A stretch of 64,000 nucleotides of DNA from a virus (Duplodnaviria; Caudoviricetes), in the IMG/VR virus record IMGVR_UViG_3300005611_000001. One strand, written 5' to 3'. A program made the position numbers and the translations under genes. The notes under the pieces were generated by a model. That model searched no databases and had not been told where the DNA came from. It saw only the letters and a list, made by a program, of their open reading frames with translations. Shown in pieces: positions 49,747-58,545 of this stretch (the first letter of the stretch is position 1; each line of letters starts with the position of its first letter).

Positions 49747-50277
49747 ATGAGTACGCATGAACCTGTTCCGTTTGTAACTTTTAAGACTCGCGTTCGCGAC
49801 GAGTCTGTCGGTGGCGATAATCCTTATCGCTGGCAAGATGTGACCACTGACGATCTGTTCAGTGGCAAGCGCGTGGTTGTCTTCTCGCTGCCTGGTGCGT
49901 TTACGCCTACCTGCTCTACTATGCAGCTGCCTGGCTTTGAAGAGAACGCACAGAAGTTCTATGACGCAGGCATTGACGAGATTTACTGCATTTCTGTTAA
50001 TGACTCGTTTGTGATGAACGCATGGGCGAAGGCTCAGAATCTTAAGCATGTTAAAGTGATTCCTGATGGTTCGGGTTACTTCACTGACGACATGGGCATG
50101 CTTGTCAATAAAGACAATCTCGGCTTTGGTAAGCGCTCTTGGCGCTATGCAATGGTCGTAGACAACGGCATCGTCGAAAAGTACTTTGTCGAGCCTGGGC
50201 GTAAAAATGATTGCGCCGATGATCCCTACGGCGAGACGACTCCCGAAAAAATCATGGCTTACTTAGGTATTGAATAA
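49747..50277 (+). CDS. Peroxiredoxin (Prx5 family)
   Basis: FSLPGAFTPTCS, SVNDSFVMNAW, PDGSG, RSWRYAMVV. Confidence 0.95.
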   Translation: MSTHEPVPFVTFKTRVRDESVGGDNPYRWQDVTTDDLFSGKRVVVFSLPGAFTPTCSTMQLPGFEENAQKFYDAGIDEIYCISVNDSFVMNAWAKAQNLKHVKVIPDGSGYFTDDMGMLVNKDNLGFGKRSWRYAMVVDNGIVEKYFVEPGRKNDCADDPYGETTPEKIMAYLGIE

Positions 50278-51215: not shown

Positions 51216-51419
51216 ATGTTTATTTCAAAACTTTGGAACAAGGCAATTGATTCTGCGAAGAGCGCAAACTACAAGCGTAGTTTGAAAGTCGCTCTTGTAC
51301 TAGCACCCTTGGTGGTCTGGGAAGTGTTCTTTTATCTTGTGCAGAAGCTGATGGCTGTTTCTGTTTTTGTTGATGATAAGATTGCGCAATTTCTGCGCGA
51401 TTTCGTGGAGAATAACTAA
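51216..51419 (+). CDS. Small membrane protein
   Basis: Central hydrophobic helix; coupled to next gene. Confidence 0.55.
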   Translation: MFISKLWNKAIDSAKSANYKRSLKVALVLAPLVVWEVFFYLVQKLMAVSVFVDDKIAQFLRDFVENN

Positions 51420-52195
51420 TGACTACGATTGTAGTTGCGGGTCTTGGTCCTGTTGGTACTGCTGTATCTACAGCGCTTAAGAATCATCCCGATGTAGAAG
51501 TGTTTCTTGACGATCCCTACAAAGGGCATGCGTTTCCCGATGATCGCGTCGAGACTGTCGATGCTGTTGTGGTCTGTGTTGCTACTCCCATGGACGAAGA
51601 CGGCTCTTGTTATACTCAAAACATTTCTGATGTTTTTCGTAAGTATGGCAATGTGAAGTATCTGGTGAAGTCTACGACTAATCCGCTGTTCTTCCGCCAC
51701 TACAATCATCTTGATATCACCTTCAGCCCTGAGTATCTGCGTGGTACGACTGGTGCTGATCCGACTCAGGAGTTTATTCACTCTGAGTTTGCAGTGTATG
51801 GTGGCGGTTCTATGCGCTGGTGGCACGAAGTTTTCGTACCTGTGCTGCCTAATCTAAAAGATGTGCGCTTCATGACTGCAGAGCAGGCTGCGTTTGCAAA
51901 GTATTTCATGAACTGCTTCCTTGCGACTAAGGTGACTTTCTTTAACCAAGCATTTGAGATTTACTCTAAGTGCGGTGGCAAAGACTTCGATATTGTGATC
52001 GACGGGCTGTGTCTTGATCCTCGTGTGGGGCGTTCACATACGCAAGTGCCTGGTCCTGATGGCGCGTTTGGTTTTGGGGGTCACTGCTTTCCGAAAGACA
52101 TGAATGCTCTGATGCGTCTTGGCGAGAAAGCTGGTGCAAATGTTGACTTTATGAAAGCGACGCTTGAGACAAATGAACGACAGCGAAACTCGTAG
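51419..52195 (+). CDS. UDP-glucose/GDP-mannose dehydrogenase (short form)
   Basis: VAGLGPVG, VCVATP, VKST, SPEYL, AKYFMNCFLATKVTFFN, GPDG.FGFGGHCFPKD. Confidence 0.9.
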   Translation: MTTIVVAGLGPVGTAVSTALKNHPDVEVFLDDPYKGHAFPDDRVETVDAVVVCVATPMDEDGSCYTQNISDVFRKYGNVKYLVKSTTNPLFFRHYNHLDITFSPEYLRGTTGADPTQEFIHSEFAVYGGGSMRWWHEVFVPVLPNLKDVRFMTAEQAAFAKYFMNCFLATKVTFFNQAFEIYSKCGGKDFDIVIDGLCLDPRVGRSHTQVPGPDGAFGFGGHCFPKDMNALMRLGEKAGANVDFMKATLETNERQRNS

Positions 52196-52610: not shown

Positions 52611-53201
52611 ATGTCTATTGCAGATTTTTTTGAAAAAAATAGATATGCTTATATCAAAAATGCCCTGCCTTTACATAAGTGTGATCAGTATGTAAAGGCA
52701 TTGTGGGCTTCAAAATCAATGAAAAATTGTGCTCAATGTCCAGGCTCTACATCATCATATACCGAGTGGCCGTTGGCTAGAGTACACTACAAAATGGTTC
52801 CTGAACTATCAAGCATTTTAGGCATTGATCTTGCACCAACATACGTTTTTTCTAGAATATATAAAAAGGGCTCTGATTTGGAAAAACACAAAGACCGCCC
52901 TTCTTGTGAGATATCTACAACTTTGACTTTGGGTGTTTCAAATCCAAATTCAAATTGGCCAATATACTTTCAAACAAAAGACGGCAACAAGGCATTTAAT
53001 ATTTCTGTCGGTGATATGGTCGCGTACAGAGGAGAAGAATTGTGGCATTGGCGCGATCCATTACAAGATGATTGGCAAGTACAAGTCTTTTTTCATTTCA
53101 TTGACAAGAACGGTCCTCATTATCCAAAATTTTTAAATGATCGAGGAAGAAACGATAGAATGTATGAATTGGTTGCTGAAAGTTTAAAATTAAATACTTG
53201 A
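52611..53201 (+). CDS. 2OG-Fe(II) oxygenase
   Basis: RIYKKGSDLEKHKDRPSCEISTTL, GDMVAYRG...HWR, QVFFH. Confidence 0.85.
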   Translation: MSIADFFEKNRYAYIKNALPLHKCDQYVKALWASKSMKNCAQCPGSTSSYTEWPLARVHYKMVPELSSILGIDLAPTYVFSRIYKKGSDLEKHKDRPSCEISTTLTLGVSNPNSNWPIYFQTKDGNKAFNISVGDMVAYRGEELWHWRDPLQDDWQVQVFFHFIDKNGPHYPKFLNDRGRNDRMYELVAESLKLNT

Positions 53202-53499: not shown

Positions 53500-53571
53500 A
53501 TGAAAGCAGGTAAAGTTTGGGGTACTACTGATGACATTGTTCGGAGAACCGTTGGACAAAAAATCGATTGA
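53500..53571 (+). pseudogene. Truncated cupin-like gene remnant (MKAGKVWGTT...)
   Basis: Good RBS; N-terminus recalled from marine phage cupin proteins; frame closes after 23 aa. Confidence 0.45.
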
Positions 53572-53800
53572 CTCTGATCTAAAAGCCCTGTACTCTTCTG
53601 TGCAGGGCAAAGTTGATCGTCATCTAGTCGAAGCGCTGGCTGATATTCGAAATGGTAAAGACCCCGAGGTTGTGCTGCGTAAGTTCAGCCGACTTGCAAC
53701 AAACACTCTTATTCATGGCCCCACAAAAGTAATTCGCGATCAAGACAATCCTGAACTGATCAAAAAAATCATAGGTATTGAAAATGAAGATAAATCATAG
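53531..53800 (+). CDS. Stand-alone glutamyl-tRNA reductase dimerisation-like domain
   Basis: EALADIRNGKDPEVVLRKFSRLATNTLIHGPTKVIR matches HemA C-terminal L..G.DP..VL...A..LTNKLLH.PT..L. Confidence 0.65.
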   Translation: MTLFGEPLDKKSIDSDLKALYSSVQGKVDRHLVEALADIRNGKDPEVVLRKFSRLATNTLIHGPTKVIRDQDNPELIKKIIGIENEDKS

Positions 53801-54077
53801 TAATGCAATTTTTGACCTTGAGCAAGAATTTATTAACTGCTGGGAAATCATCGATGATGTGAAAATGATTACAGATTACTTCACAGATGATCCGAAGTGG
53901 AAAGAGATGGATCCTGTTCTTGCAGATGCTCTGATGAATAAATACTATGGGCTTGCAGAAGTCTATGAACTTAGAATGCAGAAAGCATGGAACACCTTTG
54001 AAACTGTCTGCCGTGAATATCACGCAGCCAGACGCGCATCAAAACAAACTTACGGAGTCGAGCATGAAAGCGATTAA
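53784..54077 (+). CDS. Conserved hypothetical protein
   Basis: FDLEQEFINCWEIIDD...YELRMQKAW. Confidence 0.7.
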   Translation: MKINHSNAIFDLEQEFINCWEIIDDVKMITDYFTDDPKWKEMDPVLADALMNKYYGLAEVYELRMQKAWNTFETVCREYHAARRASKQTYGVEHESD

Positions 54078-55197: not shown

Positions 55198-55272
55198 AGA
55201 ATAGGCACTGAGTATGCTTAAGCATCAGTTAGTCCTGTAGAGTCGCAATCTTGGGCAACAGTGTCTGTTCTA
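55197..55272 (+). ncRNA. Unassigned structured element 4 (76 nt)
   Basis: 14-bp closing stem tagaataggcactg/cagtgtctgttcta with G-U pairs; inner atgc-ttaa-gcat and gtcc/gggc arms. Confidence 0.5.
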
Positions 55273-55274
55273 AT

Positions 55275-55580
55275 TTATTCGATGAAGCGGAGAGAAAGGT
55301 GATCTGGACAGAGGTTCAACTCCTCTCACCTCCACCAAAAGCACATACGCTGGATATGCAGATAGCATATTGAGACATAAGAAACATCAGGTATGTGCTT
55401 TTGATGGGGGTGTACTGGTTTCGACAGGTGCTAAGTATCAAAGTGGAGAATCGTCAAGCGCTGACGCTAAACAGAGCAACCTAAAATAAACGCAAACGAT
55501 GACGTTTATACCGAGGACTTTGCGCTAGCAGCGTAAACCTCGCGGGGTTCGCCGGAGCCTTGTTACCCAAGTCCGGCACT
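55275..55580 (+). ncRNA. ssrA: Circularly permuted (two-piece) tmRNA
   Basis: T-arm agagg-TTCAACT-cctct and CACCUCC-A-CCA end at 55337; hairpin intervening segment; 5' end GGGGGUG at 55406 giving G3-U70; pk1; tag ANDDVYTEDFALAA* at 55492-55536. Confidence 0.93.
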
Positions 55581-55599
55581 AATTCGGAGAAATCTACAA

Positions 55600-55866
55600 A
55601 TGAAACCATTCAGTCAATACATTACAGAGTATAATGATGAAACTCTTGTGAAGAAGATAAAGCACCCTAGTGGGACCGTTTTAATGATCTCTCGCTACAA
55701 GAACGGACCCGATGAAGGTAAGTACATTGTTCGTGTATCCAAGAGTAATTATGAACGTGGAAAGCAGAATCGCACGATGCGAGCTATACACGATAAGCCT
55801 CTCGATGCAGAAGCAGCCGTCGCCCTTTTTAATAAAAGAAAGAAATCGATCTGGAAGAAAAAATGA
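55600..55866 (+). CDS. Basic protein with capsid-targeting-like N-terminus (putative internal head protein)
   Basis: GGAGA RBS; MKPFSQYITE resembles T4 IP leader MKTYQEFIAE; Lys/Arg-rich. Confidence 0.6.
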   Translation: MKPFSQYITEYNDETLVKKIKHPSGTVLMISRYKNGPDEGKYIVRVSKSNYERGKQNRTMRAIHDKPLDAEAAVALFNKRKKSIWKKK

Positions 55867-57855: not shown

Positions 57856-58079
57856 CTTTAGAGCAACTGATCGAAATAGCCAAAGAAGTCGAGGTTGCTG
57901 ATCCCTTTGACTGGGCGGATGTGGCTATCGGCGAAGACGAAGCGTACCGTCTCATGGCGATGAATTTGATAGGCGAAGACTTGACACCAGAGATCATGCT
58001 TGCTACAATTGTGAAGTTGTGTGTTGAGAACCTTGTGCTGAATCTGAGACTGTTGCAAAATGAAACCAAAGTTCCTTAA
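57852..58079 (+). CDS. Hypothetical protein
   Basis: Coupled ATGA overlap. Confidence 0.65.
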   Translation: MTLEQLIEIAKEVEVADPFDWADVAIGEDEAYRLMAMNLIGEDLTPEIMLATIVKLCVENLVLNLRLLQNETKVP

Positions 58080-58545
58080 TGCTTTTATGGATACCGCGCA
58101 TCGCTTTGCGCAACTGAGTACTGCTCGCCGCGCCAAAGTCGGCGCTATTATCGTCAAAGACTCTCGGATCATATCCATCGGCTACAACGGCATGCCTGCA
58201 GGCTGGGACAACAACTGCGAGCATGAAGACTGGCCAGACTGGATCGAAAACAACCCCAAAGCACTCCGTGACCCGGCTTACCTGCGTCTCCAGACGAAGG
58301 ACGAGGTACTTCATGCTGAGACTAATGCTATTGCAAAGGTAGCGCGTAGCGCTGAATCCTGTGAGGGTGCGACGATGTTCTGCACTCACCTACCCTGCAT
58401 TCAGTGTGCCAAACTGATCTACCAGAGCGGCATCGCATGTGTCTATTATGATAACGATTATCATTCAGCGGTAGGTGTCGGCAAAGAGTTTCTGCTACGC
58501 TCAGGCGTACGCACGATCCACTGGCCAATGAAATCAATGACTTAG
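58060..58545 (+). CDS. cd: dCMP deaminase
   Basis: KVGAIIVKD.RIISIGYNG, HAETNAI, PCIQC. Confidence 0.95.
   Translation: MKPKFLNAFMDTAHRFAQLSTARRAKVGAIIVKDSRIISIGYNGMPAGWDNNCEHEDWPDWIENNPKALRDPAYLRLQTKDEVLHAETNAIAKVARSAESCEGATMFCTHLPCIQCAKLIYQSGIACVYYDNDYHSAVGVGKEFLLRSGVRTIHWPMKSMT

Follow-up and report, generated by a model that had tools for sequence, protein, structure and literature searches.

The window, by which we mean the whole 64 kb stretch of viral DNA analyzed here, derives from an uncultured aquatic T4-like myovirus. It has a GC content of about 40% and all of its large genes are located on the + strand. Among these are the genes for the gp23 capsid protein, the scaffold, gp15, the tail sheath, UvsW, UvsX, the clamp loader, the gp43 polymerase, the gp41 helicase and gp46/47. 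The DNA polymerase of the phage shares 56% identity with that of Phage C48C1 (Kyanoviridae) and about 49% with those of cyanomyoviruses. The stretch of the window was detected in 14 DNA metagenomes from 12 studies with word shares of 0.28–0.40, and the habitat labels of these metagenomes are aquatic, freshwater, estuary, marsh and marine.

The ORF that is the subject of this work encodes a stand-alone homologue of the C-terminal dimerisation domain of glutamyl-tRNA reductase (GluTR, HemA) and lies inside a long co-directional run of small genes (Table 1). A scan of this run for promoters and terminators found such sites no more frequently than in shuffled sequence. The block of small genes is flanked by genes for a peroxiredoxin and a dCMP deaminase, both of which are ordinary auxiliary genes of T4-like phages. 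A second shortened host-type enzyme is encoded in the same block as the ORF, namely a protein resembling UDP-glucose/GDP-mannose dehydrogenases: its match to the central domain is strong, that to the N-terminal NAD domain is faint and the C-terminal domain is absent, and the same length is kept in three relatives (L001, L091 and L092). The window also carries a phage-encoded tmRNA, which matches the Rfam models tmRNA_permuted with 113.9 bits and beta_tmRNA with 81.9 bits. The region of the ORF and its downstream flank are covered by contigs from four environmental runs, two of DNA and two of RNA. Two metatranscriptome libraries thereby yield contigs over the ORF, although contigs cannot prove transcription, as carry-over of DNA is possible.

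Table 1. Features at and around the ORF; positions are those of the window unless another locus is named.
Feature	Position	Strand	Details
Peroxiredoxin (Redoxin/AhpC-TSA)	49747..50277	+	flank of the small-gene block
UDP-glucose/GDP-mannose dehydrogenase-like protein	51419..52195	+	258 aa
Protein labelled 'ferrochelatase'	52611..53201	+	196 aa, phrog_2954
Cupin gene remnant	53500..53571	+	23 codons and stop; in-frame deletion of 294 bp
Stand-alone GluTR (HemA) C-terminal dimerisation domain homologue	53531..53800	+	89 aa, ATG start, TAG stop
Conserved downstream gene	53778..54077	+	97–101 aa, probable ATG start at 53784
tmRNA, phage-encoded	55201..55627	+	two-piece; ARAGORN tag ANDDVYTEDFALAA
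dCMP deaminase	58060..58545	+	flank of the small-gene block
TRTIIH-type domain alleles	L093 804..1037; L095 439..672		compared with window 53531..54077

An earlier note on this DNA had described the 89-aa ORF as resembling the C-terminal helices of HemA, had quoted the motif G.DP..VL ... TN.LIHGPT..IR and had proposed a Pfam search for GlutR_dimer (PF00745) as a check. That search gave a match of 32.4 bits, above the gathering cut-off of 22.9, with an E-value of 1.2e-7, which spans residues 4–72 of the ORF and positions 13–84 of the 99 positions of the profile. In BLASTP residues 11–89 correspond to residues 335–418 of the 434-aa HemA of Microbulbifer sp. HZ11 with 36% identity (E 1e-14), and the described resemblance is thus borne out. 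The alignment is collinear and reaches the terminal IIG-x-x-x-ED-x-S, with a deletion of six residues before the last helix of the phage protein. With the HemA encoded by an uncultured Pseudomonadales MAG, identity in the core is 62% over 39 residues. The quoted motif is present and represents the conserved core that the phage protein has in common with HemA, G-x-DPE-x-VL and TN-x-LIH-x-PT; the residues A35, G42, E46, V48, S53, T57, N58, L60, H62, P64 and T65 are invariant in phage proteins and HemA. A profile built from the phage sequences together with HemA fragments matches the GluTR of M. kandleri (1gpj) with an E-value of 3.7e-5 and, more weakly, the recombinant dimerisation domain of Arabidopsis (4yvq). 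GlutR_dimer clusters were also the nearest entries in a language-model look-up (0.92). The resemblance of the ORF to HemA is therefore far beyond chance.

The AF2 model of the protein shows three helices at residues 10–40, 45–71 and 74–81 with a mean pLDDT of 77.6, and three helices are what this domain would lead one to expect. Structure searches with this monomer model, using Foldseek (PDB) and VIA-align (wide), returned generic helical hairpins and no GluTR chains, which speaks neither for nor against the fold. A phmmer search of the single sequence against the PDB gave chance helical matches only, and among the PHROGs the ORF has no family. In some relatives the gene is called from an alternative TTG start, located at 53552 in the window, giving a form of 82 aa. 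Natural forms of 77–82 aa do without the first 7–14 residues, a stretch that the model likewise predicts with low confidence, and the functional core is therefore approximately residues 17–85.

The earlier note had also stated that the catalytic and NADPH domains are missing, and this agrees with our results. PF00745 is the sole Pfam family matched by the 89-aa ORF. When four full-length HemAs were searched against the 64 kb window by tblastn, only the ORF was found and the remaining matches had E-values > 1; the window therefore holds no remnant of the catalytic or NADPH domain of hemA. The public name 'glutamyl-tRNA reductase' is consequently a misnomer: the ORF has neither the N-terminal catalytic domain nor the Shikimate_DH-type NADPH domain, and it is a GlutR_dimer domain, not a glutamyl-tRNA reductase.

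We determined how widely the stand-alone form of the domain occurs. An index of 5.8 billion proteins contains 24 clusters of stand-alone homologues of 81–91 aa with 79–100% identity, and an exhaustive scan and a profile search added three distant homologues, P0025 (54%) as well as P0034 and P0035 (53–58%). This gives 27 clusters with lengths of 77–91 aa from several lineages of uncultured aquatic T4-like phages, all of them on phage-like contigs with the same small-gene neighbors. A match to PF00745 is precomputed for all homologues, and the divergent P0025 reaches 34.7 bits. Among 50,697 deposited phage genomes neither tblastn nor megablast obtained a match, and the gene is therefore absent from cultured phages. 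Longer, fused forms of the ORF were not found by a word-indexed search, which is weak evidence on this point. In bacterial loci the domain is the C-terminus of a full-length hemA in 69 of 69 cases parsed and free-standing in none, and prfA follows hemA in both bacterial loci that were read downstream (L010 and L011). Several candidates were discarded. The 89-aa bacterial 'stand-alone' match P0029 turned out to be part of a full-length hemA, and P0032 and P0033 are probably hemA fragments likewise. P0026, P0027, P0030 and P0031, from a scan of 1.84 billion proteins, are spurious matches to giant repetitive proteins with unrelated Pfam domains.

The reading frame is intact in 25 or more loci. 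Pairwise dN/dS ranges from 0.06 to 0.34 across comparisons, with values of 0.115 between the window and L007 (at a dS of 1.04), 0.13–0.17 between the window and L093/L095 and 0.31 between the window and L005. As judged by these substitution ratios, the ORF is a gene under purifying selection and not debris.

Directly upstream of the domain gene lies the remnant of a cupin gene. DNA alignment with L001, L002 and L004 reveals that the window has suffered a deletion here, the junction of which falls at about 53528–53531 and shows CTGA microhomology. The ATG of the domain ORF is situated at the junction and the ORF itself is untouched. The intact cupin is a metal-binding protein of 121 aa that matches Cupin_2 and phrog_7851. 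The remnant shares its last 41 nt, read in a different frame, with the start of the GlutR_dimer ORF, and an intact cupin with an overlap of 41–47 nt is found directly upstream of the domain gene in 17 related loci, including those of the divergent L005 lineage. Contigs of the four environmental runs continue into an intact cupin at 53528 and 53531, and the sequence of the deletion junction is absent from both contig collections (viral_contigs and metagenome_contigs), so that the deletion is a rare variant. In L007 and L093–L095 the domain gene is present without any cupin, and its function is therefore independent of the cupin.

Downstream, the 3' end of the ORF is overlapped by 17–23 nt by a conserved gene. 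A homologue of this gene follows the domain gene in all loci with enough sequence except L007, which makes it the most constant neighbor. Its product of 97–101 aa received no assignment from Pfam or PHROG, and the nearest Atlas clusters are viral hypothetical proteins. On the other side of the cupin remnant lies a gene whose product bears the label 'ferrochelatase' in many cyanophage and pelagiphage records. We rejected this assignment, as the protein is too short, has no Pfam match and has 2OG-Fe(II) oxygenases as its nearest named clusters; from these comparisons the label looks like a propagated misannotation of a 2OG-Fe(II)-oxygenase-like protein. Neither alaS, hemO nor other tetrapyrrole genes were found in the 64 kb window.

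The phylogeny unites the phage sequences in a single clade with a support of 100/100; the stem of this clade is very long and is placed beside the Halieaceae with a support of only 51/65. Over its length the phage protein shows 30–36% identity to any sampled HemA. The best cellular matches, in unbiased as well as pattern-based searches, are HemAs of Gamma- and Betaproteobacteria, with sources including Microbulbifer, Halieaceae, uncultured Pseudomonadales, Vibrionaceae and Burkholderiaceae. The earlier note had taken the gene as a hint to a host outside the Alphaproteobacteria. The nearest cellular relatives are in line with this, but the donor of a gene and its present host may be different organisms. 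The reading we favor is that an ancestor of these aquatic T4-like phages took up from a proteobacterial-type hemA only the final ~85 codons, those for the three-helix dimerisation domain, and that the phages have since maintained them as a gene of its own.

Within the signature motif L-T-N-K-L-[IL]-H-x-P-T the window protein has kept T, N, L, I, H, P and T, and Lys is replaced by Thr. Every phage member carries Thr at this position, in the form TNTLIH or, in L093 and L095, TRTIIH. The earlier note had mentioned neither this family-wide exchange nor the overlapping cupin gene and its deletion in the window. Lys was present in 80 of 80 bacterial matches, the scan pattern having allowed only Thr or Lys there, and the GluTR of M. 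kandleri has Arg. The two allele types, TNT-LIH and TRT-IIH, are deeply diverged and yet occur in closely related backbones. In a comparison of the window with L093, the domain gene is saturated (dS > 2) and its amino acid identity is about 55%, whereas the gene directly downstream shows a dS of 0.3 and 93% identity. The presence of a TRTIIH allele beside a downstream gene of 93% identity indicates a cassette-like replacement of alleles by recombination. In the L005 lineage the cupin is 88% identical and the adjoining domain gene 54% identical.

We next consider what such a protein could do. HemA dimerises via the three helices that each monomer contributes from this domain, which results in a V-shaped homodimer (PMC6399207). 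It has been proposed that a dimer of HemL sits inside the V, where the unstable product is handed over to it (PMC6399207). The rate of the pathway is limited by ALA formation (PMC13564367), and the isolated dimerisation domain of plant GluTR has been obtained as a stable recombinant protein (PMC4726326). Our preferred reading, to which we tentatively assign a probability of a little under 0.4, is that the ORF encodes a host-derived, microProtein-like partner that pairs with host HemA and disturbs it. Pairing is suggested because nearly all residues of the domain that are invariant in HemA have been kept. The helices of the phage domain would thus still be packed against those of another GluTR dimerisation domain. 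In the infected cell the partner would be a monomer of host HemA, and the V-shaped homodimer would give way to one-armed heterodimers, which would fail to cradle the dimer of HemL (GSAM) or would be less stable. The flux into 5-aminolevulinate, from which haem and the other tetrapyrroles are made, would fall or at least come under control of the phage. The Lys-to-Thr change in TNKLIH may belong to this changed behavior. A more specific version, in which the virus microProtein breaks up or takes over the HemA dimer together with the HemA-HemL channelling complex and the TNT and TRT alleles are matched to hosts, appears rather doubtful to us. If it applied, the first committed step of tetrapyrrole synthesis would be subject to a post-translational switch operated by the phage.

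The microProtein reading is favored by the properties of the gene, which stands alone, is selected, occurs in several lineages and survives the loss of the overlapping cupin. Genes that interact with the host typically show a shuffling of old alleles among close backbones, and we counted the TNT/TRT pattern, which is of this kind, in favor of an action on HemA. We also predicted the complex of residues 290–425 of the Microbulbifer HemA (28-row alignment) with the phage protein (7-row alignment), the former serving as a stand-in for the HemA of the host. The predicted heterodimer reached an ipSAE of 0.60 as the median of three runs compared to 0.00 for the best control, a result graded as 'weak support'. 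Agreement of contacts between the runs was at least 79% and the pLDDT of the partner at least 65. In the benchmark the ipSAE mark is reached by 58 of 80 solved complexes and by 2 of 110 mismatched pairs; scores of 0.60 or under were obtained by only 7 of those 80 solved complexes and by both mismatches that passed. Solved GluTR structures include 1GPJ of M. kandleri as well as 4N7R, 5CHE and, for the isolated domain, 4YVQ of Arabidopsis. Since GluTR homodimers have been solved and the HemA used was a stand-in, the result speaks for likeness more than for binding, and the pass may reflect the solved homodimers known to the prediction model. The proposal of the earlier note that the protein acts as a dominant-negative decoy on HemA is plausible and gains weak support from the predicted heterodimer, with the same proviso.

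Several points stand against binding to HemA. The branch of the phage proteins is very long and a fit of the interface with a given host is not assured. Replacement of the Lys in the motif could equally mean that the ancestral interaction has been lost. A HemA dimer that has lost one arm might still be catalytically active. Finally, the tight overlap with phage genes allows for a partner encoded by the phage itself.

With regard to the benefit, control of the tetrapyrrole/haem pool is more likely than sparing of Glu-tRNA. Tetrapyrrole synthesis consumes, by a rough estimate, about 1% or less of the Glu-tRNA used in translation, which makes Glu-tRNA sparing an unlikely driver; the benefit that the earlier note had named, saving Glu-tRNA for translation of the phage, is therefore quantitatively weak. 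For the phage ALA synthase vAlaS, a published hypothesis already invokes the uncoupling of Glu-tRNA and tetrapyrrole synthesis (PMC11480375).

The gene arrangement also fits a different role, in which the domain has been exapted as a dimerisation or adaptor module that pairs with itself or with the products of the overlapped genes, i.e. the cupin and the 97–101-aa protein, and not with HemA, its function having nothing to do with tetrapyrroles. The overlap with the cupin at the start of the ORF, conserved in 17 loci up to the L005 lineage, and that with the downstream gene at its end, found in all lineages but L007, suggest coupled translation, and the long branch and the Lys-to-Thr change can be read as a departure from the constraints acting on HemA. 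However, there are three independent settings in which the ORF is retained although the cupin is missing, and in L007 it is retained although the downstream gene is missing; overlaps between genes are common throughout T4-like genomes, and a purely phage-internal role does not sit well with the retention of nearly all HemA-invariant residues. We regard such a module as possible but on the unlikely side.

Still less probable is that the protein forms a homodimeric mimic, which would titrate a factor recognizing the domain, FLU-like in nature, or a protease or adaptor, so that the supply of ALA and haem to haem-consuming enzymes of the phage would be raised or sustained. In plants the repressor FLU indeed docks on the dimerisation domain and is bound by this domain in isolation (PMC4726326), and phages with hemO and a bilin reductase are thought to need a sustained supply of tetrapyrroles (PMC11480375). 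Nothing in the window, however, supports such a titration. We also know of no regulator in proteobacteria that binds the HemA dimerisation domain, which we count against it.

A fusion of cupin and domain by +1 ribosomal frameshifting in the 41–89 nt where both frames are open, by which the domain would dimerise the cupin enzyme, is very improbable. The frame of the domain is indeed +1 relative to that of the cupin, in L001 and L008 it is free of stops over the approximately 16 codons that precede the ATG, and the arrangement is conserved across lineages, but no slippery or stimulatory motif is evident and the ATG is conserved as the start codon. In L007 and L093–L095 the gene starts on its own in the absence of a cupin, and in the window it is preceded by only 23 cupin codons. 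The idea that the ORF is a non-functional hemA fragment left over from illegitimate recombination, to which its location in a hyperplastic region of small genes and the plain label glutamyl-tRNA reductase in some database sources might lead, is hardly credible and was rejected because of the dN/dS values, which are far below 1 at saturating dS, and it is further contradicted by the frame being intact, by the retention of the ORF through the neighboring deletion and by the maintenance of distinct old alleles.

Returning to the microProtein-like partner of HemA, we compared the phage protein with known systems. With the domain of bacterial HemA/GtrR (residues 335–418 of Microbulbifer HZ11 HemA) it shares homology over its full length, three predicted helices and the conserved core. 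It differs from it in being encoded by a separate gene of 77–91 aa without catalytic and NADPH domains, in the Thr that replaces Lys, in a loop before the last helix that is shorter by six residues and in its very long branch. MicroProteins such as Arabidopsis miP1a/b draw their parent protein into non-productive complexes (PMC4807768, PMC9638782). The phage protein resembles them in consisting of one small domain whose counterpart is the interaction domain of a larger homologous protein, the other functional domains being absent. In contrast to the putative case of a virus protein directed against a host metabolic enzyme, the known microProteins are encoded in the same genome as their target and mostly act on transcription factors.

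Phages are known to carry tetrapyrrole genes, namely vAlaS, hemO, pcyA/pcyX and pebS (PMC11480375), which resemble the ORF in their aquatic setting, their host origin and their relation to the ALA/haem/bilin pathway. Those genes encode complete, active enzymes that add flux, whereas the ORF encodes a non-catalytic fragment that could act only by binding. Control of ALA synthesis via contact on the GluTR dimerisation domain is also exerted by FLU in plants (PMC4726326), although FLU, a TPR protein, attaches to the domain from outside and the phage protein is a copy of the domain. Our literature search found no paper linking the GluTR dimerisation domain with phages.

In summary, auxiliary metabolic genes of phages are as a rule interpreted as complete enzymes that increase flux, and fragments of host enzymes are mostly discarded as debris or misnamed. 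Here the bare interaction domain of a rate-limiting enzyme is maintained by selection in several phage lineages. If the protein does not bind HemA, it still clearly illustrates the exaptation of a host domain by a phage. If HemA is bound, phages would control host metabolism by dominant-negative mimicry of a domain, which would be a first for tetrapyrrole synthesis, and the protein would provide a small, genetically encoded tool for modulation of the C5 pathway. In that case other ORFs in viromes that encode fragments of enzymes would be worth re-examining.
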